NCBI GenBank assembly: GCA_964523905.1
Contig: CAZFYQ010000001.1
Coordinates: 121,739-185,738 of the forward strand
DNA length: 64,000 nucleotides
Source of the DNA: an uncultured Gammaproteobacteria bacterium
GTDB taxonomy: Bacteria; Patescibacteriota; Microgenomatia; Daviesbacterales; UBA10151
Direction of reading: 5' to 3'
Shown here: one piece after another, positions 16,433-55,725 of the stretch
How positions within the stretch are numbered: position 1 is the first letter of the stretch
Layout: each line of letters begins with the position of its first letter
Notes under the pieces: model-generated
The model's input: only the letters and a program-made list of their open reading frames with translations
Databases searched by the model: none
What the model was told of the DNA's origin: nothing
Program-made: the position numbers and the translations under genes

Positions 16433-17280
16433 CGTGAAAAAAACTACAGGATATCGTGAAAAGAAACTGTGATGTAGTATGATATATTTGCTAGGCACGG
16501 ATGTGGAAAACTATAGGGCTTATTGTGCCTGCTTATAGCGCCCCTTGCATACTATTGCTAACTCGTTCGTGCGTAATGAGTAAATAATACCCGAAGGCCT
16601 CTTAGAGAAGAGAGGTGCCTATATCTATATTTTAGTGCGGACGAACTTTGAAGAATGAACCTAATTGCCGCATTATCAGGTACAAATCTATAGTAGCTCT
16701 CTATTCGTTAGTAGCTTCAAATTCCCTGTTATATTTCGATGTCGCACAATATAGATATTAAGATTTGCCGGAGAAGTGGTCTGGGGTCTATAAAACAGGA
16801 TAGGTAAAAATATGTAAAGAAAATAGATAGATTTTTAAGTGCCAAATTTAGCCTTAAAACTTGTTGTCGCCGACTAACATTAATAACCATAATTTTGTAG
16901 ATTTATTAAAATACCCATTGATAGGATTAGTTTGCCACAAAGCCCTAAACTACGGATGACTAACTAGTGCTCCTATCCCCTTAGCAGCCGTTTTTGAGGC
17001 ATTGTAGGGCCTCGTGCCTAAATAGGCTCAGAGTACCTAATAAGAGTATTTATATCAAAGAATCCTTTTAAAGTGGCGTAGTTACAAAGTATAAAAGCAT
17101 ATAGAAGATTTTATGTGCAACTCTACTTCATAAAATCTTCCCTAAGTAAGACTAGATCTAGTATTTAATGTCCGGGATTATTCTAGTCGAACGATGCTTT
17201 TTACTGTAACAAGCCACACTTGACAGATCCTTTTAGCCTTGGTATTATTCTTGTAATCAGCATTACACGAAGTAACCTTT
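16433..17280. other. ORF-free intergenic region of about 0.85 kb with no ORF of 60 aa or more on either strand. It extends to about 17352 if the recombinase starts at its internal Met.
   Basis: The six-frame track is empty here. GC content is similar to coding DNA. The region contains local hairpins (for example CCTCTtagagaagAGAGG around 16595-16620) and a 12-bp palindrome ACTAGATCTAGT (about 17150-17161). Confidence 0.6.
17218..17248 (+). promoter_or_regulatory. Sigma70-like promoter upstream of the tyrosine recombinase
   Basis: -35 TTGACA (17220-17225), exactly 17-nt spacer, -10 TATTAT (17243-17248). The promoter is preceded by the imperfect inverted repeat CTGTAACAAG ... CTTGACAG. Confidence 0.4.
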
Positions 17281-18294
17281 ATGCTCAACCCTGACCCGGA
17301 AAAATTAAAAAGTTCTACTACTCCTGTTAAGACTGCAGTGTTATTTTCTAACATGGATATGATTGATGACTTCTTTCTATTCCTTCAAACCAATAACTAT
17401 TCCCCCCAAACCCTTTATCATTATAAAAATGATTTAGCGATATTCGATAACTTTTTAAAATCCCGCAATTTAAAAATTAAAGACTTAGACAAACGCGCCA
17501 TCTTTGAATTTAAAGCCTACCTAACATCTGACAGCAGAGAAACTGCCACCACTCACCAAGAAGACGCCTTAAAATTGTCATCTGCCAGCATTAATCGTTG
17601 CCTTTCTGCAATCAGAGCTTATATCAGGTTTTTAATTGACCAAGACTATGCCACCCCAGTAACACCGGATCATTTTAAGATGGTTAAAAGGGAACATCCA
17701 CATCCCAATGTGGCCGAGCTAAATGAATTGATCTCTTTGATAGAATCTCCTAGCAAGTTGGAAGAAGAGCCTATAATTGCTGCACGCAATCGGGCGATTC
17801 TGGAACTGCTTTTTGCTACTGGAATGCGTATTAGTGAGTTGACCTCTATTAATAGAAGAGACTTAAATGAAGAGGGTAAGATCTTTATTACTGGAAAAGG
17901 CAGAAAACAAAGATTTGTTTATCTAACAGAGCGGGCTAAACAATATGTTGACCAATATCTAGAACTGAGAGACGATAATCAGCAAGCCTTATTTATTCCC
18001 ACTAAAACCAGAAGTAAAGATAAACTAAATTCGCGGCTCACTCCTCGCTATGTCCAAGAAAGATTAAAAACGTACCGTGAAAAATTAAGAATTAATTTAC
18101 CAACTACTCCCCATTCATTCCGCCATGGTTTTGCCACTTACCTTGCAGAAGAGGGTGCCTCCCCTGCTGCCATACAAATATTATTAGGTCACGAATCCTT
18201 AAATACCACTACTCGTTATGTTAACGCTAGTGATAGGTTTGCTCAGGAATCACACCGTAAATTTCATCCGCTATCCGGGGTTGACAAAGGATGA
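17281..18294 (+). CDS. Tyrosine site-specific recombinase, XerC/XerD-like (phage integrase family), predicted catalytically intact
   Basis: 'ARNRAILELLFATGMRISEL' (Arg I), 'TPHSFRHGFATYL' (H-x-x-R), 'LGHESLNTTTRYVNAS' (His and the Tyr nucleophile). The true start is probably the internal Met at about 17353 ('MDMIDDFFLFL'). Confidence 0.8.
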   Translation: MLNPDPEKLKSSTTPVKTAVLFSNMDMIDDFFLFLQTNNYSPQTLYHYKNDLAIFDNFLKSRNLKIKDLDKRAIFEFKAYLTSDSRETATTHQEDALKLSSASINRCLSAIRAYIRFLIDQDYATPVTPDHFKMVKREHPHPNVAELNELISLIESPSKLEEEPIIAARNRAILELLFATGMRISELTSINRRDLNEEGKIFITGKGRKQRFVYLTERAKQYVDQYLELRDDNQQALFIPTKTRSKDKLNSRLTPRYVQERLKTYREKLRINLPTTPHSFRHGFATYLAEEGASPAAIQILLGHESLNTTTRYVNASDRFAQESHRKFHPLSGVDKG

Positions 18295-18327
18295 ATTTAT
18301 GGTGCATTATGAAATAAATACTCATCA

Positions 18328-18597
18328 ATGAACGAGATCCTAAAGGATAAGAAAAACCTGATTAATATTTTAGTGCTGGCAGTCCTCATATTGGCTGTGC
18401 CAATTGGAATTGCGCTAATACAAAGACAGCAGACTTTAAGATCTCAAGCTGTGCAGGCAACGACCGTGACCTTTTCCGGCCCCAATGTTTCTGTAAATAA
18501 CGGCACCACTATTTTGAAATTACAGGATAATGGAAATGGTGGCTTGCAAGGCAAAGCTAACCTGGTAATTACAGCACCTAATCCCCCTGCACAATAA
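18328..18597 (+). CDS. Small membrane-anchored protein (89 aa) whose N-terminus resembles the leader region of the downstream giant protein
   Basis: TM helix followed by 'LIQRQQTLRSQA'. The giant protein has a TM helix followed by 'LAQTTQIFRPKA'. Confidence 0.35.
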   Translation: MNEILKDKKNLINILVLAVLILAVPIGIALIQRQQTLRSQAVQATTVTFSGPNVSVNNGTTILKLQDNGNGGLQGKANLVITAPNPPAQ

Positions 18598-18600: not shown

Positions 18601-21600
18601 ATGAAAATAAAACTACCATATATTAAATTAGGACAAAAAGGCATTGCCGAATGGATTGTGTTATTACTTTTAGCCATAGCTATCCCAGCCACTTTATATC
18701 TAGCCCAAACAACTCAGATTTTCAGACCAAAGGCGATTGGTTTAGATACTTCAGGTAGGGCTCCTACAGCTTCTTTCCAACCCCCTACTCCGTCTGGTGG
18801 TTCTAATATTGAAGCAGGCGTGCCAGTAACTTTACATGCTCATGCAGCGATAGGTTCATCATTTCAGTACCCACTTAATAATATATACCTTACTTTACTT
18901 CCTATTGGAGCAAATCCTTCGGATCCTAGTCAGTGGCAAACCATTGGTCAGTTTGGTTGTGGCGGTCAAACATCTTGTGATGCTAATTTTACTATTACGC
19001 CGGGTAATAATTTTATTGGACAGAGTTATGAATTAGCCTTGGTAGTTGATACTCGTGATCAACCCCCGGATCCGAATGGTGTTACTCATTTTAGCTGTTC
19101 TGGTAATAACGAAGATAATGCAATTAGACCATATCAGCAAGGTGACACCATAGTATGGTTTGCTTGTGGTGGTGGTAGTAATGTGGTATACAACATAGTT
19201 CCTCCAGGCGGCGGTGGACAACAGTGTCCTAATCCAGCTGGTTGTTATGCACCAATTGCCGGTTGTGCTCCGGCTACAGGATGTGCTGCTCCGACTACCC
19301 CACCTGCTCCAACTACTCCTCCGGCTGGTGGAACGTTTTTTTACTGTAATGCCTCACAACAATGTACTTCTACTAATAATACTAATGATTGTCCTTTGGT
19401 TGGTACATCCCATTTCTGTTACGCAACTAGCTCCTGTGGCAGTGGCTGTGCTGCTCCTACCAGTGCTACTGGTCAGTTTTATACCTGTCAAGGTACTCCA
19501 GGATCAGGACAATGTATTGGTCCGGTTGATAGTTGTCCTGCTGGTCAGAGTTGCTATAGTCTGGGTAATCACGCTAGTTGTATTAGTTATTGTGAAGGTA
19601 GTACTCCTAGCGCTCCTGCTGCACCTACTTTGTCTGGAACTGCTGGATGTGGAGTTGATCACCTTTCCTGGACAGCACCAACTGGGGCAGCAACTTACCT
19701 TCTGGGAAGTATAAATGACGGTAGGCATATTACACTTAGTGGAAATAGTTTTGATGATACTACTGCTGGTGGACTTGTTGATGGCACTACCTATCAATAT
19801 CAAGTGGTTGCATATAATAGTAGTGGTACTCCTAGCCCGTTATCAAATACAGTTACACTTACTCCTCAATGTGGTACAACACCAACTAACACACCTATCC
19901 CAACCAATACGCCGGTTCCTACTACGCCTCCAAACCAGCCGACCAACACTCCAATTCCTACTAACACACCTATCCCAACCAATACGCCGGTTCCTACTAG
20001 TGGTCCTGGCCAAGTTCATGCGACTTGTTCTGGAGGTCCAAGTTCAGTTTCAGTTGGTCAAACTGTGACCTGGATAGCTTCTGCTTCAGGAGGCAGTGGC
20101 AATTATACCTATACTTGGGTATTACCAGGTGAAAATTCAACTCTACCGCAAACGCAATCTTTTAGTTGGATTTATTCGACAAGTGGGATTAAAAGTGCCC
20201 AAGTAATTGTAGTAGATAATGCAACAAATGGATTTACTACTGGTTTTGTAAATTGTTCCAACTCAATATCTGTTACTGGTGGAAGTGGGCCAGTTGCTAC
20301 AAACACCCCTGCTCCCACTGTAGCAGCTACTAATACTCCAACCCCTACTACTGGAGTAACGGGTTGTTCAAGCTTAACTCTTAATGGTAGTACTAGCTTG
20401 CCTGTTTCTTCTGCGGGCACTAGTGTTAATATCGGTATTGCTTTTTCTCCTAAAAATGCCAGTGTTGATTTCTTTAATCCTTCTGGCCCATCTTTACTGC
20501 CTGGTCAACCAACAGTAGTTAACAATGATCCAAATGATCCAACAGCCGGGCGTCGTTGGACACTGACAGTTCCTTCAAATAGTACAACTTCTCCAATCAC
20601 CTATACTCTAAATGCCAATATTAATGGTACTTTCTCTTGTACCCCGGTGACTATTCAGGTGGCTGCAGCTGCTCCTAATACTGCTTGTCCAGCTAGTATT
20701 ACCTCTACTCAAGTTAAATTTAGAGCTGGAAATAACACTGGCACATGGGTAGCAACTAAGACTGTCAGCATTGGAGATAGTGTTAGTGTGGCTGGTTTCC
20801 ACAACAATACCACTGATGTTCCTGCCTCAGATACCTCTATAACCATCTCTGGTCCAAATGGTTTTTCTAATACTATAAGTGGAGGTGGCGCAGTGTTTTC
20901 TCCCACCAGTGATGTTGGTCCCGGAATATATACCTTTAACGCTACCACTACTGGTTTACAAGGTGCTGCTTGTACTGGCACAGGTATTTTATCCGTCAAT
21001 CCTGTTCCAACAGCAGTTCCAACTGCAACTCCGGTGCCTACTGCAACCACAATTCCTACTGCAACTCCGGTTATACTGGCTCCGACCACTACTTTTGTTA
21101 GAATTGCCGAATCCCCAACCGGTGTAGATGATGTCACTCAATATATTCGGGTACCATATACCAATGAAGCCCTTAATGTGCCTTATACTTTCAAAGATAT
21201 TACTCCCGGAGTACACCAGATTTACGTTAAGTTTGAAGGTACTGGAACACACATCGGTGAAACTACCTTGTCTACTCTGCAAGGACCATATAACATCACT
21301 ATTGTTAATCCAGACCCCACCTTTGATGTGCCAGGTGGAGGTATTTCCTGTGACATTGGAGTTGATGGTAATGTCAACTTTATCCTAACTGGTAAATACT
21401 TTGCCGCTGCTCAGGGTAAGGGCACAGTCAAAGATGGTCAATTCCCGCTCAAGATTTCTACCTGGGCAGATGGATCTGTCACCGGTACTTTGGAGCAAAA
21501 TGGAGCAACAACTGGTCAGGACTTCCCGATTATTCTAACTCGTGATGATGGCGCAGCCACTATTCCCACTGTTTGTTCAGTGGCAACTTCTGCCCTGCAA

Positions 21601-22164
21601 CTTAATCCTAACTTCTTCTGTCATCAGACTTTAACTCAAACACTGTCTAATGTCACTTTGACCGTGGCAGAGGGTAAAAATGGTGGTAATAAAGCTGATC
21701 AGACAGTGACCATTGGTACTAATGGCTTGATATCCGGTTTAACCACTAAACTTCAGCAAGGTAAACCTTACCGAATTAGTATTAAGGCCCCTGGTACTTT
21801 GCGACACACTCAAGAATTTATTGCCAATAAAGGTACTACTAACTTGGGGGCATTCAATCTGCCAGTGGGAGACATTTTCCCGGTTAACGCTGGTGGAGAT
21901 GGAAAAATTAACAGTGGTGATTATGCTGAGTTAATCAGAGAATGGTCCTTAAATGCCATTACCGGTCAACGTAATGGTGATTTAAACCTTGATGGTCGGG
22001 TTAATTCAGTTGACTGGGCTTGCATGAGAATCTACTTTAATAGCAGTGATGATCCTGCAGCAGAAGCCGGTCCATTAACTACCATTAATGTTTCCCCAAC
22101 TCCTGCCGCTACTACGCCCTCTCCTACCCAGACTGTCTCAACTACACCCACACCAACGCCTTAG
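18601..22164 (+). CDS. Giant cell-surface protein (1187 aa) with an N-terminal signal-anchor, a Cys-rich module, an FN3-like domain, Pro/Thr linkers, a PKD-like domain, Ig-like beta domains and a C-terminal type-I dockerin
   Basis: Dockerin Ca-binding repeats 'NAGGDGKINSGDYAELI' and 'NGDLNLDGRVNSVDWACMRI'. FN3-like 'HLSWTAPTGAATY...YQYQVVAYNSSG'. PKD-like 'GSGNYTYTW'. Linkers 'TNTPIPTNTPVPT'. Confidence 0.7.
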   Translation: MKIKLPYIKLGQKGIAEWIVLLLLAIAIPATLYLAQTTQIFRPKAIGLDTSGRAPTASFQPPTPSGGSNIEAGVPVTLHAHAAIGSSFQYPLNNIYLTLLPIGANPSDPSQWQTIGQFGCGGQTSCDANFTITPGNNFIGQSYELALVVDTRDQPPDPNGVTHFSCSGNNEDNAIRPYQQGDTIVWFACGGGSNVVYNIVPPGGGGQQCPNPAGCYAPIAGCAPATGCAAPTTPPAPTTPPAGGTFFYCNASQQCTSTNNTNDCPLVGTSHFCYATSSCGSGCAAPTSATGQFYTCQGTPGSGQCIGPVDSCPAGQSCYSLGNHASCISYCEGSTPSAPAAPTLSGTAGCGVDHLSWTAPTGAATYLLGSINDGRHITLSGNSFDDTTAGGLVDGTTYQYQVVAYNSSGTPSPLSNTVTLTPQCGTTPTNTPIPTNTPVPTTPPNQPTNTPIPTNTPIPTNTPVPTSGPGQVHATCSGGPSSVSVGQTVTWIASASGGSGNYTYTWVLPGENSTLPQTQSFSWIYSTSGIKSAQVIVVDNATNGFTTGFVNCSNSISVTGGSGPVATNTPAPTVAATNTPTPTTGVTGCSSLTLNGSTSLPVSSAGTSVNIGIAFSPKNASVDFFNPSGPSLLPGQPTVVNNDPNDPTAGRRWTLTVPSNSTTSPITYTLNANINGTFSCTPVTIQVAAAAPNTACPASITSTQVKFRAGNNTGTWVATKTVSIGDSVSVAGFHNNTTDVPASDTSITISGPNGFSNTISGGGAVFSPTSDVGPGIYTFNATTTGLQGAACTGTGILSVNPVPTAVPTATPVPTATTIPTATPVILAPTTTFVRIAESPTGVDDVTQYIRVPYTNEALNVPYTFKDITPGVHQIYVKFEGTGTHIGETTLSTLQGPYNITIVNPDPTFDVPGGGISCDIGVDGNVNFILTGKYFAAAQGKGTVKDGQFPLKISTWADGSVTGTLEQNGATTGQDFPIILTRDDGAATIPTVCSVATSALQLNPNFFCHQTLTQTLSNVTLTVAEGKNGGNKADQTVTIGTNGLISGLTTKLQQGKPYRISIKAPGTLRHTQEFIANKGTTNLGAFNLPVGDIFPVNAGGDGKINSGDYAELIREWSLNAITGQRNGDLNLDGRVNSVDWACMRIYFNSSDDPAAEAGPLTTINVSPTPAATTPSPTQTVSTTPTPTP
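19886..19999 (+). repeat. Direct nucleotide repeat, two perfect 38-bp copies with 85-bp periodicity, encoding the TNTPIPTNTPVPT linker
   Basis: The sequence 'ctaacacacctatcccaaccaatacgccggttcctact' occurs at 19886-19923 and again at 19971-19998. Confidence 0.6.
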
Positions 22165-22212
22165 TAGTGGAGACTTTACTAATTAGTTAAGAGATATTAT
22201 GCTAAATAAACT

Positions 22213-22791
22213 ATGACAGATAACAATAAAGGTAAATTAAACGTTAAAATAATTTTTATTATACTAGGAGTAATCTTAGTAATTGAACTGATCCTAGGAA
22301 TCCGCTCAATAATGACGAATCAATCTACTGGCTCTTCACAGTCAGTAGTTAGAAAAGTACCCTTAAAAGGGACGATTACACTTACTGCAGATAAAACTGA
22401 GGTAAATGTTGGTGATAAAGTTACGCTTACCATAATAGTCACCTCCCCTGTAGCAGTTGATGGCGTAGATTTGGTAGCTAAATATGACCCGAAGATTTTA
22501 TCAGCTAGTGATAACAGTATTCATACTGGTACAATTTTTCCACAATATCCACTTAGTAAAATAGACTCTGCCGGTTTCCTTAGAATTTCCGGAATTTCTA
22601 ATCCTAACACGGCTAGATTTGCTGGGAAAGGAGTCTTTGCAACAGTTGATTTTAAAGCTGTAAAATCAGGTAAAGCGGAAATATCAGTAGTGTTTACCCA
22701 AGGCTCAACAACTGATTCAAATATTATCGGTGCTGCCAATGAGAAACCATTGCTGGAGGAGGCAGGAAAACTGGAGGTTACGGTTAAGTGA
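22213..22791 (+). CDS. Cohesin-domain protein with an N-terminal membrane anchor (192 aa)
   Basis: TM helix followed by a beta-sandwich of about 140 aa with a cohesin-like pattern: 'VDGVDLVAKYDPKIL...GFLRISGIS...GKGVFATVDFKAVKSGKAEI'. Confidence 0.55.
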   Translation: MTDNNKGKLNVKIIFIILGVILVIELILGIRSIMTNQSTGSSQSVVRKVPLKGTITLTADKTEVNVGDKVTLTIIVTSPVAVDGVDLVAKYDPKILSASDNSIHTGTIFPQYPLSKIDSAGFLRISGISNPNTARFAGKGVFATVDFKAVKSGKAEISVVFTQGSTTDSNIIGAANEKPLLEEAGKLEVTVK

Positions 22792-23552
22792 AGTTTTTTA
22801 AAAAAACTATCCTTGCAATTGTCACATCAATTGTAATGATAATATCTCCCTCAGCTGTATTTGCTTCCACACTGGCTCTTTCGCCTTCAACAGGTACATT
22901 TAATCAATCCTGTGCTTTTTCGGTTGTGATTAATCTTGATACTCAAAGTGCTCAGACTGACGGCACTGATGTGGTATTATTTTACGATCCTACCCGTTTT
23001 AATGCCACCTCAATTTTAAATGGTACTATTTATAATGATTATCCTAACTCCAATATAGACTCTGTTAACGGAAAAATCCAAATCTCCGGTATTGCTTCTT
23101 CCTCCTCTCCTTTTAACGGCAAGGGAATTTTCGCCACAGTTAACTTCTCTGTTTTACCGGCTGCTCCAACTGGCGCCACAGCCATGACATTTGATTTTGA
23201 TCCTAATGATAAGGCCAAAACCACTGATTCAAATGTGATTGAACACGCTACTTTAGCTGATACCTTAGCTAATGTGGTTAATGGTAGTTATGTGGTGGGA
23301 AGTACCGGATCTTGCGCAGCCGTTACTCCCACGATCACAATTAAACCAACTGGTGCCCCTCCGGTGGTTTATTTACCACAAGGACAAGTTTCAACCGGTA
23401 CTCCCTCAGCTTCTCCTGCTAGAACTACTCTTGATCAATTTGTTGATAAAAATGGTAAAGGCCCGGGAATCTCCTCTGAAGCTACTTTTACCTTAGCAAT
23501 AGTAGGTTCAGTTTTAACTGTCCTGGGGGTAGTAGGTTTGGCAGTTTTGTAG
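22788..23552 (+). CDS. Cohesin-domain protein with a signal peptide, a Ser/Thr/Pro linker and a C-terminal TM anchor (254 aa)
   Basis: 'TDVVLFYDPTRF...GKIQISGIAS...GKGIFATVNFSVLP' parallels the previous gene. C-terminus '...LAIVGSVLTVLGVVGLAVL'. Confidence 0.55.
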   Translation: MKFFKKTILAIVTSIVMIISPSAVFASTLALSPSTGTFNQSCAFSVVINLDTQSAQTDGTDVVLFYDPTRFNATSILNGTIYNDYPNSNIDSVNGKIQISGIASSSSPFNGKGIFATVNFSVLPAAPTGATAMTFDFDPNDKAKTTDSNVIEHATLADTLANVVNGSYVVGSTGSCAAVTPTITIKPTGAPPVVYLPQGQVSTGTPSASPARTTLDQFVDKNGKGPGISSEATFTLAIVGSVLTVLGVVGLAVL

Positions 23553-23555: not shown

Positions 23556-24248
23556 ATGAGTTTGTCGGCCTTAATTGCAGATTTCCTGGAAAATTTAGAA
23601 GTATCCAACACTTCGCAATTTACTATTCGTGATTATGATCATTATTTAAAAAGATTCATGGAATTTACAGGAGATATTCCCTTAACTGATATTAACCTGG
23701 CTTTAATAAACAAATACAAACAGCATCTATCTCAACTTGAACTTAAAAAAATCACTCAAAATTATTATTTAATTGCCATTAGGGCACTTCTTCGCTACCT
23801 AACAGAGCAAAATATCCAAACTCTTCCTTCAGATTCGGTGGAACTGATAAAACAAGAGCGCAGTGAGACCAAAGAATTAGATGAGGATCAGTTAAAGATG
23901 CTTCTGGAAAGCCCGGTGGTAAGCCTTAAAGCCGGCGCCAGGGATAAAGCGATCTTAGAGACTCTGTTGTCCACTGGATATAAAGTATCTAAACTGGTGG
24001 CTTTAAATCGGGGGGAAGTTAGATCAAACTGGGTTGATCAGTATTTGTCCCAAAGACAAGACAGCTTTAAACCATTATTCATCAGATTTCAGGGAAGAAA
24101 AGATACTACCCTGGATGGAGAATCAATGAGGTTAACCCCCCGCTCCATCCAAAGGATAGTAGAAAAATACGTTAAAATAACCGGACTGGCAGTTAAGGCA
24201 ACGCCACAGACTATTCGAGCAGCTGCTCAGAAAAAATCTCCAGTTTAG
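23556..24248 (+). CDS. Degenerate or truncated tyrosine-recombinase paralog, likely catalytically inactive
   Basis: Integrase SAM-like N-domain present. The catalytic Arg is replaced in 'TGYKVSKLVAL'. H-x-x-R is degenerate ('ATPQTIRAAA'). The protein ends before the Tyr-containing segment. Confidence 0.55.
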   Translation: MSLSALIADFLENLEVSNTSQFTIRDYDHYLKRFMEFTGDIPLTDINLALINKYKQHLSQLELKKITQNYYLIAIRALLRYLTEQNIQTLPSDSVELIKQERSETKELDEDQLKMLLESPVVSLKAGARDKAILETLLSTGYKVSKLVALNRGEVRSNWVDQYLSQRQDSFKPLFIRFQGRKDTTLDGESMRLTPRSIQRIVEKYVKITGLAVKATPQTIRAAAQKKSPV

Positions 24249-32878: not shown

Positions 32879-34210
32879 TTATTTAAAAATCCTTTCCACC
32901 GCTTGATTAAATTTACTGCCTCTATCAAATTCATTCTGAAATAAATTAAATGAGGTGGCTGCCGGAGAAAACAAAATAATATCGCCTGTTTTGGCAACTG
33001 TTTTAATATCAGTTAATAATTTTTCTAAATTATCATAGGTTCCGGCAATTTTATCAGCCGGTACTGCTTTTTTGATTTCTTCGGTGACATCCCCCGCAAG
33101 AAAGAATACAGTTTTGGCTTTAGTTGCTAGCTGTTTTGCATATTCTTTATAGTCCAAGTTTTTATTCATTCCCCCTGCTATTAGTATAGAATTGGGAAAT
33201 GCATCAAGGGCTGAAATACCGGAGGTAGGATTAGTTGAAGCAGTGTCGTTAATTATTTGGATACCCTGCCAAGTTTTAATCAGCTGTAACCTAAATTCTA
33301 CGCCTTTGAAATTTTTAATTGCCTCTTCGGCATCCTTCAAAGGGATTTTCAAGCTTTGTAGCAGAGCTAATGCAGCGGCGAAGTTGCTTAAGTTGTGATT
33401 GCCTTTTAAAACGGGATTAAAATCACTAGGTAGATCAGTTTTGCTATAAAAAATTACTTGAGCAGATAAACCATCTGTAAATTTTGGGTTGTTTAAAATA
33501 CTATCTTCTCTGTTGAGAAGTAAAAAATCATCTTCAGTCTGGAATTGAGTTATTAACCTTTTTGCTGCAATGTATTCATACATTCCTGAATAGTAATTTA
33601 AATGATCTGGGTGGATATTGGTGATGACGGCATATTTGGGAGAAATTTTATGAGGAATTAATCCCTCTAACTGAAAAGAAGAAATTTCCAGTACGACTAA
33701 AGTGTTTTTTTTGATAAGGGGAATGGTTTCTAGAACACTTGTACCAATGTTTCCGACCAATACAGCATCTTTCCCGTTTTGCCTTAACCCTTCATAAATT
33801 AAAGCAGCGACTGTAGATTTACCTTTGCTGCCAGTAATACCAATTATTTGTGAGCGGTCAACTACTTTAAAGAAAATGCCTAAGTCCGTTTCAATTGTTT
33901 TATTTTTTTTGCGAGCGTATTCTAAATATTCATTTTCCCGTTTCACTGCCGGGTTTTTAATAATTAAATCTGCCCAATCAATATCCTCATGTAGATGTTT
34001 TTCTAAACTGTAAGTGATTTCCGGAAAAGATTTTAATTCTTCTATAGAAGGTTTTAAGTCTTTGGCGGATTTTAAATCAGTAATTCTAACAACAGCACCT
34101 TTTGCTGCAAAAAATTTAGCCGCGCCTACTCCTCCTTGATTTAAACCTAATCCAAAAATTAGTACTTTCTTATTCCTGTTTAATACTTTTAAATTCCCGA
34201 AATTGTCCAT
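32879..34210 (-). CDS. murD: UDP-N-acetylmuramoylalanine--D-glutamate ligase
   Basis: N-terminal Rossmann-like 'VLIFGLGLNQGGVGAAKFFAAKGAVVRITD' and 'GITGSKGKSTVAALI'. Confidence 0.8.
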   Translation of the reverse strand: MDNFGNLKVLNRNKKVLIFGLGLNQGGVGAAKFFAAKGAVVRITDLKSAKDLKPSIEELKSFPEITYSLEKHLHEDIDWADLIIKNPAVKRENEYLEYARKKNKTIETDLGIFFKVVDRSQIIGITGSKGKSTVAALIYEGLRQNGKDAVLVGNIGTSVLETIPLIKKNTLVVLEISSFQLEGLIPHKISPKYAVITNIHPDHLNYYSGMYEYIAAKRLITQFQTEDDFLLLNREDSILNNPKFTDGLSAQVIFYSKTDLPSDFNPVLKGNHNLSNFAAALALLQSLKIPLKDAEEAIKNFKGVEFRLQLIKTWQGIQIINDTASTNPTSGISALDAFPNSILIAGGMNKNLDYKEYAKQLATKAKTVFFLAGDVTEEIKKAVPADKIAGTYDNLEKLLTDIKTVAKTGDIILFSPAATSFNLFQNEFDRGSKFNQAVERIFK

Positions 34211-42529: not shown

Positions 42530-44218
42530 ATGGCTAATACAATTGAGGATCTTTTATTACAGCAAGGTTTACTGACTCCTGATCAAGTATCGGCTTTAAA
42601 ACTGGAGAGTATTAATTCCGGTCAGACGATCGATAAACTATTGCTCTCCCATAATTTGGTTTCACCTGATAAGGTCGCGGCTGCCAAAGCCCAAATGCTA
42701 AATATCCCTTTTGTTAAGCTTGAAGGTAAAGGTATATCTGCGGATATACTAAACATGATTCCTGAGCCAGCTGCTCAACGTTACCGTATTATTCCCTTTG
42801 AAAAATCAAATAATGAGTTATGGGTCGCTATGGAAGATCCATTGGATGTGCAGGTGATTCAATTTATTGAAAAAAGAAGCGGCATGAGAATCAAGCCCTT
42901 TTTAGCATTAAAAGATGATATTTTAAAAGCCATTGATGAACAGTACGCTCAAACTTTGACTACAGATGTAACTTCAGCTTTGCGTGAGGTACAGTCAGTC
43001 AAAACAGAAACCACGGCGGAGGAAAACACCGAAGTTATTCGCGAAGCTCCAGTTTCTAATATAGTTAAACAACTACTGGAGTATGCCATTAAATCAAGAG
43101 CTTCGGACATTCATATTGAGCCTCAAGAAGACAGGGTTATTGTTAGATACAGGATTGATGGGATTCTGCAAGAGAAAATACTGCTCCCTAAAGGTGTTCA
43201 TGATGCCTTAATTTCCCGCATTAAAATTCTTTCTGTTTTAAAAATTGATGAAAAAAGATTGCCTCAAGATGGTCGTTTTACTTTTAATGATGGGCAAAAT
43301 GAGGTTGATCTTCGTGTTTCAATCATACCTACTGTTTATGGTGAAAAGGTAGTGTTACGGCTACTGCCTAAATCAACTGCCGCACCTACTTTTGTGGAAC
43401 TTGGCATCAGAGGTGTTGCTTTAAAGGCATTAGAGTCTCAACTATTGCGGTCCCACGGAATTATTTTAATTTGTGGCCCAACTGGTTCAGGTAAAACCAC
43501 AACTTTGTATTCCATTCTGACAAAGGTTTCCACCAGTAAAGTGAATGTGGTTACTATTGAAGATCCGGTTGAATATCAAATTAACGGAGTGAATCAAGTT
43601 CAGGTTAATCAGGGTATTGGACTGACTTTTGCTGCTGCTTTACGAAGTTTTTTACGACAAGACCCTAATGTGATCATGGTTGGTGAGGTTCGTGATACCG
43701 AAACAGCAGAATTGGCAATTCAGGCAGCTTTAACCGGGCATCAGGTATTTTCTACAGTTCATACTAATTCTGCAGCTGGTGCTCCTCCCCGTTTGGTTGA
43801 CATGGGTGTTGAGCCGTTTCTTTTAACATCAGCTCTTAATTGTACGGTTGGTCAGCGGGTAGTTAGAAAAATTTGTACATATTGCAAAGTGGAATTTAAT
43901 ATTCCTGCGGAATTAACTAACACTGTCAAGGCTGTATTGGGTGCATATTTACCAACCACTACTCCGGTAATGAAACTGTATAAAGGTAAAGGTTGTAAAG
44001 CCTGTGGCGGCACTGGCTATTTGGGCAGAATTGGTATTTATGAAGTGTTGGTCATCACTGATGCCATTGCTAAGCTTATTCTGGAAAGTGCCACCTCTAA
44101 TAAAATAGAGGAAGCGGCAATCAGTGCCGGAATGGTAACCATGAAACAAGATGGATATTTAAAAGCCTTGGAAGGGATCACGACCCTAGAGGAGGTCTTA
44201 AGGGTGGCACAGGACTGA
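42530..44218 (+). CDS. pilB: Type IV pilus assembly ATPase (GspE/PilB family)
   Basis: N-terminal GSPII_E_N-like domain, Walker A 'GPTGSGKTTTLYS', tetra-Cys 'CTYC...CKACGGTG'. Confidence 0.85.
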   Translation: MANTIEDLLLQQGLLTPDQVSALKLESINSGQTIDKLLLSHNLVSPDKVAAAKAQMLNIPFVKLEGKGISADILNMIPEPAAQRYRIIPFEKSNNELWVAMEDPLDVQVIQFIEKRSGMRIKPFLALKDDILKAIDEQYAQTLTTDVTSALREVQSVKTETTAEENTEVIREAPVSNIVKQLLEYAIKSRASDIHIEPQEDRVIVRYRIDGILQEKILLPKGVHDALISRIKILSVLKIDEKRLPQDGRFTFNDGQNEVDLRVSIIPTVYGEKVVLRLLPKSTAAPTFVELGIRGVALKALESQLLRSHGIILICGPTGSGKTTTLYSILTKVSTSKVNVVTIEDPVEYQINGVNQVQVNQGIGLTFAAALRSFLRQDPNVIMVGEVRDTETAELAIQAALTGHQVFSTVHTNSAAGAPPRLVDMGVEPFLLTSALNCTVGQRVVRKICTYCKVEFNIPAELTNTVKAVLGAYLPTTTPVMKLYKGKGCKACGGTGYLGRIGIYEVLVITDAIAKLILESATSNKIEEAAISAGMVTMKQDGYLKALEGITTLEEVLRVAQD

Positions 44219-45270
44219 TGAATATTCAACAGCTTTTGGAATTAACAGTTGAGCGAAATGCCTCCGACCTTCATCTATCAGTTGGTTTTCCCCCAATGCT
44301 TCGGATCCAGGGCGATATGCTTGCTATCACTGGCGAAGAAAGGTGTACTCCACAGCAAATTGAAAGTTTACTTTTGCCTTTGCTAACCGATATTCAAAAA
44401 CAAATTTATCAACAGAATCTGGAGTTGGATTTCTCCTTTGAATTTGAATCTAAAGCTCGGTTTAGAGCTAGCGTTTACATGCAAAAGGGTTATTCGGCTA
44501 TTGCCTTACGACTGATTCCTCTAAAAATTCCTCTATTAGAAGAATTAGGATTACCCATGGTTGTTAGCAAACTAACTGAGTTAAAACAGGGTTTTGTTTT
44601 GGTGACCGGGCCAACTGGTCATGGAAAAACTACTACTCTAGCCTCTTTTCTTAATAAAATAAATTTGGAAAGAGCCACCCATATAATCACTGTTGAAGAC
44701 CCGATTGAATATGTCTATCCTCAGGGTAAAGCCTTAATTGAACAAAGGGAAATGTTTAAAGACACTCGGTCTTGGGGGAATGCTTTGAGAGCGGCGCTCA
44801 GGGAAGATCCGGACGTAGTGTTAGTTGGAGAAATGAGGGATTTGGAAACAATTTCTTCTGCTATTACCATTGCTGAAACCGGTCATTTAGTTTTAGCAAC
44901 GCTGCATACTAATTCGGCATCTCAAGCAGTTGATCGTATTATTGATGTTTTTCCAGAAGTGGCTCAGCCTCAAGTTAGATTACAGTTGGCATCCACACTT
45001 GAGGCTATTCTCTCCCTTCGTTTGATCCCCACTATTGAACCAGGCCGTGCCTTAGCTTATGAACTACTGTTTGCCACACCGGCCGTTCGCAATTTAATTC
45101 GTGAAGCGAAGTCATACTTAATTGATAGTACCATTGAAACCTCTGCTGAGCTGGGAATGCAAACTTTGGAAAGGTCTTTGGCAGATTTGGTCAGAAATGG
45201 AAAAATTACTGAGGAAGTAGCTTCCAGGTATGCGCTTCGGCCTGGTTTGTTAGCCAAGCTGCTTAAATAA
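44218..45270 (+). CDS. pilT: Type IV pilus retraction ATPase
   Basis: 'GPTGHGKTTTLASF' and 'AIALRLIP'. ATGA overlap with pilB. Confidence 0.85.
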   Translation: MNIQQLLELTVERNASDLHLSVGFPPMLRIQGDMLAITGEERCTPQQIESLLLPLLTDIQKQIYQQNLELDFSFEFESKARFRASVYMQKGYSAIALRLIPLKIPLLEELGLPMVVSKLTELKQGFVLVTGPTGHGKTTTLASFLNKINLERATHIITVEDPIEYVYPQGKALIEQREMFKDTRSWGNALRAALREDPDVVLVGEMRDLETISSAITIAETGHLVLATLHTNSASQAVDRIIDVFPEVAQPQVRLQLASTLEAILSLRLIPTIEPGRALAYELLFATPAVRNLIREAKSYLIDSTIETSAELGMQTLERSLADLVRNGKITEEVASRYALRPGLLAKLLK

Positions 45271-45273
45271 TTT

Positions 45274-46473
45274 ATGGAATATATTTACCGTGCCAAAACT
45301 AGTAACGGAGAATATCACTCCGGATCTGTTCAGGCATCAGATGTTCATTCAGCAGCTTTAATTCTTCGGAAAAAAGGTTTAGTAGTTATTAGCTTAAAAT
45401 CAAAAAAACCGGGTTTTGATAAATTTTTCGACAGCATATTTAATCGGGTTAGCTTTAGTGAATTGGTGGTACTGACTCGGCAACTAGCTACAATGGTAAA
45501 AGCCGGTTTGGTACTTTCAAATGCGATTGATATTCTAGAAGAACAGCAAACCAATAAAATTTTGAAAAAAGCCTTGCAAGAAATCTCGCAGGATATCAAG
45601 GGAGGTTTAACTTTGGCTCAGGCATTTGGTAGGTATCCTGATATTTTCCCTAAGCTTTATGTTAATTTAATTAAATCAGGTGAAACTTCTGGTAAGCTAG
45701 ATCAGGTACTAGTGCAAATGGCTGAAGGCTTAGAAAAGCAACGGGAATTTCAAGCTAGAGTAAAAGGGGCGATGATTTATCCAATTGTGGTTTTAGGCAT
45801 GATGGGAGGAGTGATTATCATTATGATGGTATTTGTTATTCCCAAACTAATTACTTTATATCAGCAATCAACAATTGAATTGCCTCTGCCCACCAGAATT
45901 TTGATTTTTACTTCGAATTTATTTGTGAATTTTTGGTGGCTCGGTATTATTATCATTATTACTTCAGTGGTCGTTTTTAATAGATGGAATAAGACTGAGG
46001 AACATAAATATATTGTGGCCAAATTGCTACTTAAGGTACCAATTGTAGGAAAAATTATTACCGGAGTTGCTTTAACAGATTTTAATCGAACTTTTGGTCT
46101 GCTAACTTCAGCAGGTATTCCGCTTTTGGATTCAATTGGAATTGTTTCAGATATGACTGATAATTCAGTTTTTAAAAAAACCCTAAAAGAAGCATATACT
46201 GGAGTAGAAAGAGGACTCCCCTTTTCCACATTACTTTCCAGCAATGTCTTTCCTAAGATTGTCGGACAAATGGTTCGGGTTGGTGAAGAAACCGGTAAAG
46301 TTGATGAAGTCTTTTTTACTTTGGCCAACTATTTTGAGTCTGAATCAGATAACTTAATCAAAAATCTGACTGTAGCAATTGAACCAATTGTGCTAATTAT
46401 CCTAGGTATTGGTGTGGGGTTTTTAGTGATCTCCATTATTTTGCCAATATACAAATTGACAACGTCATTTTAA
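45274..46473 (+). CDS. pilC: Type IV pilus platform protein (T2SS F family)
   Basis: Two T2SSF repeats and three TM helices. Confidence 0.85.
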   Translation: MEYIYRAKTSNGEYHSGSVQASDVHSAALILRKKGLVVISLKSKKPGFDKFFDSIFNRVSFSELVVLTRQLATMVKAGLVLSNAIDILEEQQTNKILKKALQEISQDIKGGLTLAQAFGRYPDIFPKLYVNLIKSGETSGKLDQVLVQMAEGLEKQREFQARVKGAMIYPIVVLGMMGGVIIIMMVFVIPKLITLYQQSTIELPLPTRILIFTSNLFVNFWWLGIIIIITSVVVFNRWNKTEEHKYIVAKLLLKVPIVGKIITGVALTDFNRTFGLLTSAGIPLLDSIGIVSDMTDNSVFKKTLKEAYTGVERGLPFSTLLSSNVFPKIVGQMVRVGEETGKVDEVFFTLANYFESESDNLIKNLTVAIEPIVLIILGIGVGFLVISIILPIYKLTTSF

Positions 46474-46563
46474 GCAGAGTTGGCTACTTGACTAAGTAGG
46501 TGAAGTTATGAATAAAATGGACTTACTAGTAGATAAATCTTTTTTGAAGGGAGGTGAATACGA

Positions 46564-47124
46564 TTGAAAAAAACTGTCCAAGTTTTAACTAACAAAAAAC
46601 ATAATGGTTTTACTTTAGTTGAACTTTTAGTTGTTATCGCAATTATTGCTATTTTAGCAGCGGTTGTTGTTTTGATCATTAATCCTCTTGAATTAACAAA
46701 ACGAGGAAGAGATGCGGCACGACTGTCTGATTTAGCAAACCTACAAAACGCTATTAATGTAGCTGTTCAAGAATCAAGTGGCTCTGGAACTGTTGCAGTG
46801 CTTTGTAAGGTTTCTGGTACTTACCCATGTAGCGGATCTTCCAATACTGGTACAAGAGTTGCAGATGGTACGGGTTGGGTAAAAGTAGACCTCTCAACAC
46901 AAAAGAGTGTCTCAGTGCCAACTCTACCAGCTGATCCAGTTAATGATTCTGCTCATCACTACACTTACTGTGCAGATAATGATAGTTGGGAAATTGATAC
47001 TGCCTTAGAATCATCCCAACAAGGAAGTAAGATGATTAATGATGGTGGTAATGATCCAGCTATTTACGAAGTCGGATCAAGCCTTAGCTTGATTGCAACT
47101 TCAGGTGGAAGCTGTACTTACTAA
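46564..47124 (+). CDS. Type IV pilin (candidate major pilin), TTG start with a strong SD
   Basis: Class III signal 'NGFTLVELLVVIAIIAILAAVV' (G|FTLVE with E at +5). The SD GGGAGGTG lies 8 nt upstream of the TTG. The gene sits between pilC and pilD. Confidence 0.65.
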   Translation: MKKTVQVLTNKKHNGFTLVELLVVIAIIAILAAVVVLIINPLELTKRGRDAARLSDLANLQNAINVAVQESSGSGTVAVLCKVSGTYPCSGSSNTGTRVADGTGWVKVDLSTQKSVSVPTLPADPVNDSAHHYTYCADNDSWEIDTALESSQQGSKMINDGGNDPAIYEVGSSLSLIATSGGSCTY

Positions 47125-47195
47125 ACTAAAAGCCCTTTTTGCAGCACTGTTTTTCGGAAACGAGGAAAAAGAGCAAGAGGGCTTTTTGGTAGATT

Positions 47196-48116: not shown

Positions 48117-48172
48117 CAACATTATTTATTTATTCTAATAATTAGTACATAAGCTAAAAACTTAAAAAAGTC

Positions 48173-48676: not shown

Positions 48677-48689
48677 TTTTTCTGCGGAT

Positions 48690-49127: not shown

Positions 49128-49152
49128 GTCAATAATGTGCTACGTTTAGAGT

Positions 49153-54640: not shown

Positions 54641-54686
54641 CAATTGACAATTACAGGCTAACAATCGACAATTAAATAACTGCCCT

Positions 54687-55724: not shown

Positions 55725-55725
55725 T

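Follow-up and report, generated by a model that had tools for sequence, protein, structure and literature searches.

Gene organization of the locus

The window, the whole 64-kb stretch of DNA analysed here, belongs to a Daviesbacteria-like bacterium of the candidate phyla radiation (CPR). This tiny bacterium of groundwater origin (Candidatus Daviesbacteria) carries a cassette in which the last three of the following open reading frames were confirmed on the + strand:

18328–18597, + strand: small secreted protein, 89 aa (open reading frame; hydrophobic N-terminal helix, 'IQRQQTLRSQA' motif, mature part of ~45 aa)
18601–22164, + strand: dockerin-bearing surface protein, head and stalk fusion, 1187 aa (open reading frame, Pfam, comparison with relatives)
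22213–22791, + strand: cohesin 1, 192 aa, with N-terminal transmembrane (TM) anchor, short linker and cohesin (Pfam, PDB profile search, AF2)
22788–23552, + strand: cohesin 2, 254 aa, with signal peptide, cohesin, S/T/P stalk and C-terminal TM helix (Pfam, PDB profile search, hydropathy)

The cohesin 2 frame starts with GTG, overlaps the stop of cohesin 1 by 4 nt and has a GGAGG 11 nt upstream of its start. The 89-aa gene, which ends 3 nt short of the large gene, is the first gene of the putative operon; a promoter-like site at 18281–18310, upstream of it, is a consensus match only. Many related loci have a homologue of ~90 aa in this position, and the 89-aa sequence is similar to the N-termini of dockerin proteins from other loci. 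The type IV pilus locus mentioned in the sequence-only reading is real.

Domains of the large protein

The 1187-aa protein was divided into the following segments:

18601–18735, + strand: N-terminal export signal or anchor, aa 1–45 (hydropathy; hydrophobic helix, then LYLAQTTQIFRPKA)
18736–19635, + strand: hypervariable head, N-terminal domain and Cys-rich modules, aa 46–345, 21 Cys (database search, BLAST, Pfam)
19663–19881, + strand: FN3-like domain, aa 355–427 (Pfam fn3, E 0.0026, below threshold)
20002–20286, + strand: PKD-like domain, aa 468–562 (Pfam PKD, E 0.4, below threshold)
20279–20370, + strand: head–stalk fusion junction, ~aa 560–590 (colinearity with split relatives)
20350–21582, + strand: stalk, Ig/TIG-like beta-sandwich domains with Pro/Thr linkers, aa 584–994 (locus comparison, Pfam in homologues)
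21583–21861, + strand: X-like module, a beta-sandwich immediately before the dockerin, aa 995–1087 (AF2, Foldseek, conservation)
21862–22050, + strand: dockerin, aa 1088–1150 (variant loop 1 GDIFPVNAGGDGKINSGD, canonical loop 2 DLNLDGRVNSVD, a helix after each)
22051–22161, + strand: Pro/Thr-rich C-terminal tail, aa 1151–1187 (composition)

A hydrophobic region followed by 'L..QQQ..KSRA' was present at the N-terminus of ~33 of the 44 homologous proteins, and the remainder had classical signal peptides at the same position. The signal of the large protein is probably cleaved. Pro at −3 of the putative 'RPKA' site is unfavourable for signal peptidase I, and a helix left uncleaved would hold the protein by its N-terminus as well as by its dockerin end.

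The head had a single relative (P0024) among 1.84 billion representative proteins and BLAST matches in 1–2 of ~55 related loci, and the Pfam search of aa 46–345 matched no family. The whole protein has a pI of 4.9, hence an acidic composition, in which Thr, Gly, Ser and Asn are abundant. It had been described as a Cys-rich FN3/PKD adhesin; it does contain 32 Cys, but these are concentrated in aa 120–350, and the matches to fn3 (18.4 bits) and PKD (11.1 bits) fall below the respective cutoffs of 25 and 23.5. The FN3-like segment aligns to aa 276–350 of the 450-aa protein of locus L006, the P0024 segment homologous to the PKD-like region matched PKD/PKD_4 at E 0.007–0.01, and locus L045 has a segment 42% identical to that region. 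The FN3 and PKD labels are tentative.

Within the stalk, conservation climbs toward the C-terminus, with aa 671–800 found in 6 loci, aa 828–905 in 13 and aa 906–994 in 14; Pfam TIG was detected in 13 of the 53 homologous dockerin proteins. The X module was modelled by AF2 with a pLDDT of ~75–85. When it was modelled together with the dockerin (pLDDT 72), the top four Foldseek matches were the type II X-dockerin (X-Doc) dyads 5m0y_B, 5g5d_B, 2b59_B and 5k39_B from Clostridium thermocellum, at modest E-values (best 2e-3, none at E ≤ 1e-3).

The dockerin was recognized by Pfam Dockerin_1 at 31.5 bits, above the gathering cutoff of 22.9 (E 2e-7, aa 1099–1145), and the PDB profile search returned type I dockerins (4fl4_A at 1.3e-6, CelS 2mte/1daq at 7e-6). 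Its predicted fold, with helices at aa 1105–1116 and 1136–1146 of the AF2 model after the two loops, agrees with a dockerin. The sequence-only reading had put two canonical Ca-binding segments at the very C-terminus. In fact only the second loop is canonical; the first follows a variant pattern common to the whole family, 'GDIFP-x(3-5)-GDGxINxxD', and in the large protein its ligand position 3 is a Gly. The 37-aa tail follows the dockerin. The relatives L002 and L006 have an additional Cys-containing domain at the position of the tail.

The two membrane cohesins

Both neighbouring genes encode cohesins, as had been proposed, with Pfam scores above the gathering cutoffs, and hydropathy agrees with the TM anchor of the first and with the signal peptide, stalk and C-terminal TM helix of the second. 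Cohesin 1 (43.1 bits, cutoff 24.1, E 6e-11, aa 55–169) has its TM anchor at aa 12–33 (nt 22246–22311; aa 12–30 by hydropathy) and its cohesin domain at aa ~52–192. The membrane linker has only ~20 residues, so that a docked protein would need to cross the wall starting at the membrane surface. The PDB profile search matched type II cohesins of ScaB from A. cellulolyticus (3l8q at 1.9e-8), the AF2 model had pLDDT >90 across most of the domain, and the top 50 Foldseek matches in the PDB were all cohesins (best 1qzn at E 9e-10). The fold matches included the Archaeoglobus fulgidus cohesin 2xdh and the Clostridium perfringens cohesin-like 2jh2. According to the model, cohesin 1 is type II-like and has the cohesin jelly-roll.

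Cohesin 2 (35.0 bits, E 1.9e-8, aa 44–142) consists of a signal peptide (aa 1–27, '...SAVFA|ST'), a cohesin (aa ~28–172), an S/T/P stalk (aa 173–230) and a TM helix at aa 231–254 (aa 236–254 by hydropathy) without a basic tail. It matched type I cohesins in the PDB profile search (4ums at 1.6e-3, 6kg8 at 5e-3) and, at a mean pairwise identity of 62%, is conserved better than any other part of the cassette. An invariant 'TTDSN' motif is common to both cohesins.

Conservation, fission and co-variation of the cassette

The cassette lies at one fixed chromosomal site in ~50 species-level Daviesbacteria/Microgenomates genomes. Its order, dockerin protein(s), TM-cohesin, SP-cohesin-TM, between RuvC/DUF5656 and a recombinase gene, with gyrA farther downstream, holds in essentially every one of the 53 GTDB species-representative loci with enough flank and in 5 metagenome loci. 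The gene order, recurring in ~50 species-level genomes, is far beyond chance. The dockerin proteins range from 480 to 1728 aa; their anchor end is conserved and their tip variable. Thus 50 loci have the dockerin, which contains invariant Asp/Asn residues, and 40 have the X module, as against 6–14 for the middle domains and 1–2 for the head.

In the two closest relatives, L006 and L062/L063+L002, the window protein is represented by two colinear proteins, a head protein (450 or 591 aa) with a dockerin or dockerin-like end and a stalk protein that opens with a cohesin. At the point corresponding to the fusion junction, the head protein of these relatives finishes in a dockerin-like tail and a stop, after which the stalk protein begins with its own signal and a cohesin. 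The relatives have in this way a second dockerin and a third cohesin, and the window holds the fused form. The alignments place P0024 aa 1–512 on aa 3–573 of the large protein, aa 198–523 of the L062 stalk protein on aa 562–875, and aa 216–771 of the 952-aa protein of L006 on aa 589–1160. Extra cohesins occurred inside the dockerin proteins of at least 8 loci. What is new here is the cassette at a fixed site, the conserved X-dockerin end with a near-orphan head, the split versus fused state of head and stalk, and an X-dockerin divergence that tracks cohesin 1 above all.

The divergence of the X-dockerin follows cohesin 1 more than cohesin 2 or the housekeeping neighbours. The pairwise-distance correlations with cohesin 1 were 0.75–0.82 for the X module and 0.58–0.69 for the dockerin, those with cohesin 2 were 0.26–0.50, and those with gyrA, RuvC or DUF5656 were 0.42–0.57, all such mirror-tree values being confounded by shared phylogeny and similar evolutionary rates. 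This points to the N-anchored cohesin 1 as the main dockerin partner. The single-chain chimeric cohesin–dockerin co-fold gave a pTM of 0.43. From synteny, co-variation and gene fusion/fission we infer that the dockerin binds a cohesin.

Comparison with known cohesin–dockerin systems

The type II cohesin–X-dockerin anchoring of C. thermocellum and A. cellulolyticus (CipA X-DocII with SdbA/OlpB/Orf2p; 2b59, 5g5d, 5k39, 5m0y, 4u3s) is alike in that an Ig-like X module precedes the dockerin, the two being conserved as a dyad, that type II cohesins are nearest to the likely partner cohesin by sequence and fold, and that the function would be the tethering of a long modular protein to the envelope. 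It differs in that the window anchors are single cohesins with TM helices instead of proteins with SLH domains, the protein to be docked does not act as a scaffoldin that integrates enzymes, the host is a CPR bacterium, and the dockerin is nearer type I in sequence with a variant first Ca loop.

CttA of Ruminococcus flavefaciens is reportedly a non-enzymatic X-dockerin cellulose adhesin that sits on the cell-wall cohesin ScaE, encoded in the same sca cluster. There, too, a C-terminal X-Doc adhesion protein is encoded next to a single-cohesin surface anchor, and docking attaches the cell to its target, as may be the case here. ScaE is sortase-anchored and CttA binds cellulose via CBM-like modules, whereas in the window two cohesins are anchored by TM helices, and the large protein has an orphan Cys-rich head but lacks a CBM.

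Hierarchical chains are built by adaptor scaffoldins, for example A. cellulolyticus ScaB (PMC4959524). Similarly, in the relatives L006, L062/L002, L014, L019 and L022 one protein contains both a cohesin and a dockerin, whose sequences fall into different specificity-like classes, and would connect a more distal protein with the cohesins at the membrane. However, their chain carries a single head protein instead of enzyme arrays, and in the window the adaptor link is replaced by covalent fusion. Non-cellulosomal cohesin or dockerin modules, few per genome, have been proposed to serve adhesion or complex assembly in bacteria and archaea (Peer et al. 2009, as cited in PMC10066038); the fold matches 2xdh and 2jh2 named above are of this kind. 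The window shares with them an organism without a cellulosome, but those modules are mostly isolated, whereas here there is a lineage-wide syntenic cassette with membrane cohesins, an X-Doc dyad and a hypervariable passenger.

Proposed function and alternative explanations

We believe that the cassette is probably a non-cellulosomal cohesin–dockerin system that holds an exchangeable protein, of adhesin-like or coat type, non-covalently on the cell surface. A host- or surface-adhesin role is one of two plausible roles of the large protein, the other being a surface coat or S-layer protein.

That the large protein is the main envelope or S-layer-like protein, with cohesin–dockerin replacing the SLH or CWB2 anchoring of other monoderms and the variable part forming an exposed lattice, was judged rather unlikely. 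It agrees with the occurrence of just one copy, always at the same core-genome locus, in all species examined, with the adjoining cell-wall genes (amidase, FemAB, Mur ligase, gyrA), with a conserved anchor end and highly variable remainder, which are typical of S-layer proteins, and with the acidic composition. S-layers have reportedly been seen on CPR cells, which also counts in its favour. However, S-layer proteins are usually Cys-poor and compact, whereas this one has 32 Cys and long Pro/Thr linkers; its beads on flexible linkers, with TSP1, TIG and FN3 in homologues, look fibrillar and adhesin-like, and the two-protein head and stalk chains of relatives suggest a stalked tip instead of a 2-D lattice.

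Docking in trans seems less probable still. Here the N-terminal anchor would stay uncleaved and the distal dockerin would meet cohesins of sibling cells, or the cohesins would serve other dockerin proteins and adjacency would reflect co-regulation only. The Pro at −3 speaks for it, as do the co-variation of cohesin 2 with the dockerin, which does not exceed that of housekeeping genes, and the existence of other dockerin proteins in related metagenomes, such as P0018 (X-Doc and cupredoxin). On the other side, the orthologues with classical cleavable signal peptides argue for secretion, the X-Doc co-variation with cohesin 1 exceeds the controls, and the colinear order of split head, Doc::Coh, stalk and X-Doc fits a chain hung from the X-Doc end.

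A mini-cellulosome or polysaccharide-degrading complex, whose cohesins recruit dockerin-bearing glycoside hydrolases encoded elsewhere, is very improbable: cohesin and dockerin genes of another Microgenomates lineage, a Ca. Shapirobacterales MAG, were proposed to form one (Bell et al. 2022, PMC9123182) and 2 of the 53 homologous-locus dockerin proteins have pectate-lyase-like beta-helix domains, but the window protein matched no GH, CE, PL or CBM family in Pfam, a multi-cohesin scaffoldin is absent, all six frames of the window hold only one dockerin and one canonical dockerin loop, and the passenger domains are of adhesion type. Absence of GH and CBM from the 53 dockerin proteins, whose domains were Dockerin, TIG, Cohesin, TSP1, fn3 and beta-helix, speaks against a cellulosome, and the earlier suggestion of an attachment device rather than a cellulosome is borne out to that extent.

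In the surface display that we favour, the 1187-aa protein would be exported, its signal probably being cleaved, and its X module and dockerin would plug non-covalently, probably with Ca2+ dependence, into a membrane cohesin of the adjacent genes. Cohesin 1, type II-like and anchored by its N-terminus, is the likeliest partner; cohesin 2, on its stalk, may be a second socket, which would give the two docking topologies put forward in the sequence-only reading. Docking would tether the stalk of Ig/TIG-like domains to the cell and push the hypervariable Cys-rich head outward. In close relatives, a second, orthogonal dockerin–cohesin pair would join the separate head and stalk proteins, and in the window genome a deletion may have fused the two covalently. 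The putative cohesin–dockerin surface-display system is part of the core genome of Candidatus Daviesbacteria, and the head would be its exchangeable, fast-evolving functional tip. This tip most likely serves as an adhesin toward host cells or surfaces; otherwise it would form the outward side of a protein coat.

The three genes and their domains

The sequence-only reading had described three consecutive genes as a cohesin–dockerin pair encoded in cis, and the three open reading frames were recovered as it had placed them.

18601-22164, + strand: 1187-aa dockerin-bearing protein (the giant protein)
22213-22791, + strand: 192-aa protein with an N-terminal TM anchor (cohesin 1)
22788-23552, + strand: 254-aa protein with signal peptide, cohesin domain and C-terminal TM helix (cohesin 2)

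The cohesin 2 ORF has a GTG start and a 4-nt overlap with the stop of the cohesin 1 ORF, and the genes of the giant protein and cohesin 1 share a reading frame. All three proteins scored above the Pfam-A gathering cutoff, as the earlier claim required. Dockerin_1 (PF00404) matched aa 1099-1145 of the giant protein with 31.5 bits (cutoff 22.9), and Cohesin (PF00963; cutoff 24.1) matched aa 55-169 of cohesin 1 and aa 44-142 of cohesin 2 with 43.1 and 35.0 bits, respectively. In NCBIfam the cohesins matched neither a sorting signal nor any other family, and for the three proteins it yielded nothing beyond Pfam.

Hydropathy bore out the membrane anchors of both cohesin proteins. Cohesin 1 has a TM helix at its N-terminus (aa 12-30), and cohesin 2 has a signal peptide ('SAVFA|ST') and an S/T/P stalk followed by a C-terminal TM helix (aa 236-254). 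The giant protein begins with a hydrophobic segment. HMM and sequence searches of the cohesin proteins found neither SLH repeats nor LPXTG, the anchors being TM helices. The C-terminal helix of cohesin 2 (window 23478-23549) is the end of the protein, basic cytoplasmic residues were seen in no homologue, and 'PGF' or 'LPSAG' stands directly before the helix in some relatives (metagenome proteins P0012-P0014 and locus L005). The C-terminus of cohesin 2 may be a dedicated sorting or processing signal, though it matches no known model.

Four details of the earlier description were corrected. The dockerin is present but does not form the very end of the protein, since a 37-aa Pro/Thr tail lies behind it. 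In a canonical dockerin the F-hand segment is duplicated, and each copy has Ca ligands at loop positions 1, 3, 5, 9 and 12 and a helix behind it. The second segment (D-L-N-L-D-G-R-V-N-S-V-D) is canonical at all ligands and invariant across 44 sequences, but the first, also taken for canonical, is a family-wide variant ('GDIFP-x3-5-GDGxINxxD') that keeps D5, N9 and D12, with Gly in place of the ligand at position 3 and extra residues inserted ('GDIFP-x3-5-GDG'). The 32 Cys of the giant protein are clustered at aa 120-350. Its FN3 and PKD labels are tentative: the Pfam-A matches were below threshold (fn3, 18.4 bits against a cutoff of 25; PKD, 11.1 against 23.5), and in the homologous protein P0024, too, the PKD match reached only an E of about 0.01. 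These regions are Ig-like beta-sandwiches at best.

Folds and module classes

The family profile of cohesin 1 matched best to solved type II cohesins, namely A. cellulolyticus ScaB (3l8q, E 1.9e-8) and the C. thermocellum anchoring proteins, and that of cohesin 2 matched type I cohesins weakly (4ums, E 1.6e-3). The two proteins are about 30% identical and have an invariant TTDSN motif in common. By best matches, cohesin 1 is closest to type II cohesins in sequence and fold and cohesin 2, weakly, to type I cohesins. The AlphaFold2 model of the concatenated X module, dockerin, tail and cohesin 1 had a mean pLDDT of 75.7 and a pTM of 0.43, and the pLDDT of its cohesin 1 part was mostly >90. In a Foldseek search of the PDB with this model, the best 50 matches were all cohesins, type II first (1qzn, E 9e-10), and the TM values of the cohesin 1 matches, normalised to the target, were 0.6-0.75. 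Cohesin 1 is thus predicted by AlphaFold2 and Foldseek to have the nine-stranded beta jelly-roll of cohesins.

The profile of the module plus dockerin matched the solved type I dockerins 4fl4_A (1.3e-6) and CelS 2mte/1daq (7e-6). Modelled alone, aa 992-1166 (pLDDT 72, pTM 0.63) formed a seven-strand beta-sandwich and then two helices, which are the dockerin helices at their expected positions. The best four Foldseek matches of this model were all C. thermocellum type II X-dockerin dyads (5m0y_B, 5g5d_B, 2b59_B and 5k39_B), with 143-148 aligned columns, an E of only 2e-3 to 5e-2 and a TM of 0.42-0.53; the matches ranked under them were noise. On these models and matches, the fold check succeeded for cohesin 1 and, with moderate confidence, for the dockerin. 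The Ig-like module directly upstream of the dockerin (aa 995-1087) is predicted to form one structural unit with it, as in X-dockerins, and the two are conserved together in 40 loci.

Conservation of the cassette in the lineage

The window is chromosomal DNA, in which YebC, RuvC, DUF5656, an XerC-like recombinase and an 89-aa ORF precede the three cassette genes, followed by a truncated recombinase-like gene (230 aa), a PF04020 membrane protein, Amidase_2 and gyrA. A word-indexed search with cohesin 1 returned only 14 relatives, all metagenomic, whose contigs share this gene order. Because the cohesin 1 alignment was too divergent, the cohesin 2 alignment was used as the query for scanning one genome per GTDB species, and 53 loci were obtained, nearly all titled Candidatus Daviesbacteria, Microgenomates or Patescibacteria. 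Many MAG records with the cassette (L011, L014, L016, L019-L022 and other 'binchicken' records) bear the title 'uncultured Gammaproteobacteria bacterium', which in these public entries is evidently generic, either a placeholder or a wrong label.

Gene order was compared with local HMMs and phmmer on all ORFs and was counted wherever the contig reached far enough. The common order was RuvC, DUF5656, a variable XerC-like gene and, in some loci, a small protein, then the dockerin protein or pair of dockerin proteins, a TM-cohesin of about 200 aa, an SP-cohesin-TM of about 240 aa, a recombinase of about 305 aa and, further on, gyrA. Because the order is the same wherever contigs reach, the cassette is a core feature of the Daviesbacteria lineage and no island.

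The cassette is flanked by two tyrosine-recombinase genes. Phase variation by an invertible element was rejected, as no convincing inverted repeats turned up and the recombinase on the downstream side belongs, in all loci, to the conserved core genes beside gyrA. A prophage or island, suggested by the holin_4_2 and Amidase_2 genes downstream, was likewise rejected, both genes being syntenic in nearly all species. In the window the downstream gene (23556-24248) is cut to 230 aa, which leaves a SAM-like N-domain and part of the catalytic domain, and its orthologue has about 305 aa in most species. The full-length XerC-like gene (17281-18294, 337 aa) occurs in the window and its closest relatives L006 and L048 and in only about a third of the loci. 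It is possibly a functional replacement of the truncated downstream recombinase. IS200/IS605-type Y1 transposase genes lie near the cassette in the closest relatives (L002, 5575-6258; L062, 2889-3557) and are absent from the window.

The anchor-to-tip gradient

Segments of the giant protein were searched by BLAST against all loci, and conservation was found to fall from the anchor to the tip.

Loci with a match to each segment of the giant protein
Dockerin: 50
X module (aa 995-1087): 40
aa 906-994 (TIG-like): 14
aa 828-905: 13
aa 671-800: 6
Head segments: 1-2

When 1.84 billion representative proteins were searched exhaustively with HMMER, the head (aa 40-345) had one relative only, P0024. The C-terminal 228 aa, Pro/Thr tail included, found no homologues as a query, and a trimmed 4-sequence C-terminal profile gave only 9 matches, mostly fragments. 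Exact database look-ups of the giant protein and cohesin 2 returned no record, and cluster look-ups returned no names. Mean pairwise identity was 0.62 for cohesin 2, 0.51 for the dockerin, 0.38 for cohesin 1 and 0.37 for the X module; the values for the recombinase, RuvC and GyrA were 0.70, 0.73 and 0.79, respectively.

The dockerin proteins ranged from 480 to 1728 aa across loci. Pfam families among the 53 were Dockerin_1 (38), TIG (13), Cohesin (5), TSP1 (2), pectate-lyase-like beta-helix (2) and fn3 (2). Passengers vary widely by species (L009-L061), for example thrombospondin type 1 repeats, a pectate-lyase-like beta-helix, DUF1554, an Endostatin/collagen-like domain and a Cys-rich region resembling Dickkopf. 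Two metagenome proteins carry the cassette-type X-dockerin in other fusions: P0020 joins it directly to a cohesin-2-type cohesin, and P0018 joins it to a cupredoxin (Cupredoxin_1, E 1e-9). Because of the latter fusion, the cohesin socket may also display redox proteins in some relatives.

Fusion and fission of head and stalk

Locus L006 has two genes where the window has one. The 450-aa protein consists of a signal, the head, an FN3-like domain and, at the C-terminus, a dockerin that falls just short of the Pfam cutoff with 21.7 bits, and its aa 1-123 and 276-350 align by BLASTP with aa 8-130 and 355-424 of the giant protein. The 952-aa protein consists of a signal, an N-terminal cohesin (28.2 bits, above the cutoff), an Ig-like stalk and an X-dockerin (34.9 bits), and its aa 216-771 align with aa 589-1160. 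In the closest lineage (L062/L063 and L002), head and stalk are split as in L006. P0024 (591 aa) lies at the syntenic position of the giant protein gene and is colinear with aa 3-573, PKD-like domain included (38% identity, E 6e-63). It ends in a divergent dockerin-like tail that scored 15 bits with the local HMM only and had no Pfam match. The stalk protein gene comes next; the N-terminal domain of its product shares 44% identity with the cohesin of L006 (E 2e-41) and was detected by the local HMM (21.9 bits) but missed by Pfam, and the remainder is colinear with aa 562-875 of the giant protein and 99% identical to an L002 fragment. A cohesin lies inside a dockerin protein in at least 8 loci.

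Because the giant protein is colinear with separate head and stalk proteins of relatives, it is a covalent fusion of the two. In the relatives, head and stalk are predicted to be joined by a second dockerin and cohesin whose sequences are distinct from the membrane-proximal pair. This relation is Rosetta-stone-type evidence that assembly is a real function of these modules. By the order head-Doc::Coh-stalk-XDoc, the chain would hang from its X-dockerin end.

The likely cohesin partner

Pairwise-distance (mirror-tree) correlations were calculated over 47 loci.

Mirror-tree correlations
X module and cohesin 1: 0.75-0.82
Dockerin and cohesin 1: 0.58-0.69
X module or dockerin and cohesin 2: 0.26-0.50
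X module or dockerin and GyrA, RuvC or DUF5656: 0.42-0.57

In the partial Mantel test against the recombinase, p was 0.001 for cohesin 1. By these values, the X-dockerin is more likely to have co-evolved with cohesin 1, the type II-like protein with the N-terminal anchor, though they are suggestive only, since phylogeny and rate confound the measure. Compared with cohesin 1, cohesin 2 is better conserved and type I-like, and the second dockerin repeat is the more conserved one (column conservation 0.68 vs 0.57). Cohesin 2 may bind this second repeat or another dockerin protein elsewhere in the genome.

The export motif and other features of the window

About 33 of the 44 complete dockerin proteins begin with a basic stretch, a Pro-containing hydrophobic helix and the motif 'L(V/A)xQQQxx(K/R)S(K/R)A', which reads 'LYLAQTTQIFRPKA' in the giant protein. 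The rest have classical signal peptides in place of the motif, an argument for the motif belonging to an export signal that is cleaved off. It occurs in secreted proteins of the locus (window 18601-18735 and 18328-18460; loci L006-L060) and is matched by no NCBIfam or Pfam model. The 89-aa ORF (18328-18597) is not specific to the window, as ORFs of about 90 aa recur at that position. Because its sequence ('...KNKKNL..L.LAVP.G..LI.RQQ.L.S.A....F.GPNV...') matches the N-terminus of full-length dockerin proteins elsewhere (L010, L020, L027), it is either a further, detached module of the system or a relic of gene replacement that has stayed conserved.

The type IV pilus locus noticed earlier was confirmed at 42530-56979 and is complete, with PilB-like and PilT-like ATPases, PilC, prepilin peptidase, at least 5 N-methyl pilin-like genes and PilM. 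Large family-less genes, such as 52865-54640 (591 aa), are part of the locus as well. In the region of 32998-34202 there is a 443-aa ORF. Between DUF5656 and the xerC-like gene, 16433-17280 (848 nt) contains no ORF of at least 60 aa and has three blocks with 75-97% nucleotide conservation in at least 18 Daviesbacteria loci, including loci without the xerC-like gene. Its invariant core is 'GCCGTTTT...GGGC..T..AGGGC.TCG', and a hairpin at about 16927-16950 co-varies by eye. This stretch had no Rfam match even at E<=1, and RNAalifold gave no consensus structure on either strand; Rfam families and tRNAs were found nowhere in the window. The stretch may encode an unknown ncRNA, serve as a leader or in regulation, or be a site of recombination.

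Comparison with known systems and proposed function

Cohesin and dockerin genes in a Microgenomates MAG have been interpreted as a cellulosome (PMC9123182). Non-cellulosomal dockerins of Omnitrophota giant proteins were suggested to be adhesins (PMC10066038, citing Peer et al. 2009). A cellulosome has a multi-cohesin scaffoldin and a CBM, whereas the window has single-cohesin proteins only and no CBM. No dockerin-bearing carbohydrate-active enzyme lies within the 64 kb, where a six-frame search found just one canonical dockerin loop and the other large family-less proteins were neither cohesin nor dockerin proteins. Among the 53 dockerin proteins of the homologous loci, Pfam detected no GH or CBM, and 2 have pectate-lyase-like beta-helices. 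Within the window and the homologous loci, the earlier view that this is not a cellulosome is therefore supported.

Mechanistically, the cassette comes nearest to the way in which cellulosomal scaffoldins are anchored through a type II cohesin and an X-dockerin. The anchor protein there is held on the wall by SLH repeats or a sortase signal, whereas the cohesins of the window have TM helices. The split head and stalk versions of the relatives resemble adaptor scaffoldins. We take CttA-ScaE of R. flavefaciens to be the nearest functional analogue of the Daviesbacteria cassette.

We propose that the giant protein would be exported and processed, and synteny, co-variation and fusion/fission suggest membrane cohesin 1, and possibly cohesin 2 as well, as the docking site of its X-dockerin dyad. 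The stalk of beta-sandwiches and Pro/Thr linkers would hold the hypervariable Cys-rich head away from the cell, where the head could serve as the binding tip for a host or surface or as the exposed face of a coat. A bolder reading, which we offer tentatively and which may well be wrong, is that an episymbiotic CPR lineage would recognise its host or partner with this cassette as an organ, with a conserved two-cohesin membrane socket and a plugged-in, rapidly replaceable modular tip adhesin. On this reading, the two cohesins might engage both non-equivalent faces of one dockerin simultaneously. As parts of such an organ, the cohesin–dockerin joints would be natural 'cassette connectors', with heads and stalks swapped, split and fused between species, and, in functional likeness to the modularity of phage tail fibres, the pairs would set host range.

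The sequence-only interpretation is thus supported, with binding and biological role as what we infer from it. Lineage-wide synteny, the anchor-to-tip conservation gradient, the X module and the fusion/fission relation are added to it here. We found no description of a conserved Daviesbacteria cassette in the literature.

Significance

To our knowledge, little has been established on the way in which ultra-small CPR/Patescibacteria cells attach to hosts or surfaces, and hardly any of these bacteria are in culture. The locus offers a concrete, testable surface apparatus for this question. The X-dockerin and the two cohesin ectodomains are small soluble domains suited to expression and assay, and about 50 natural sequence pairs are usable for specificity work. 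The locus also calls for caution in labelling cohesin and dockerin genes of Microgenomates MAGs as 'cellulosomes', as was done in PMC9123182. In this lineage, cohesin–dockerin joints would act outside polysaccharide degradation as evolutionary connectors, won and lost by gene fission and fusion.
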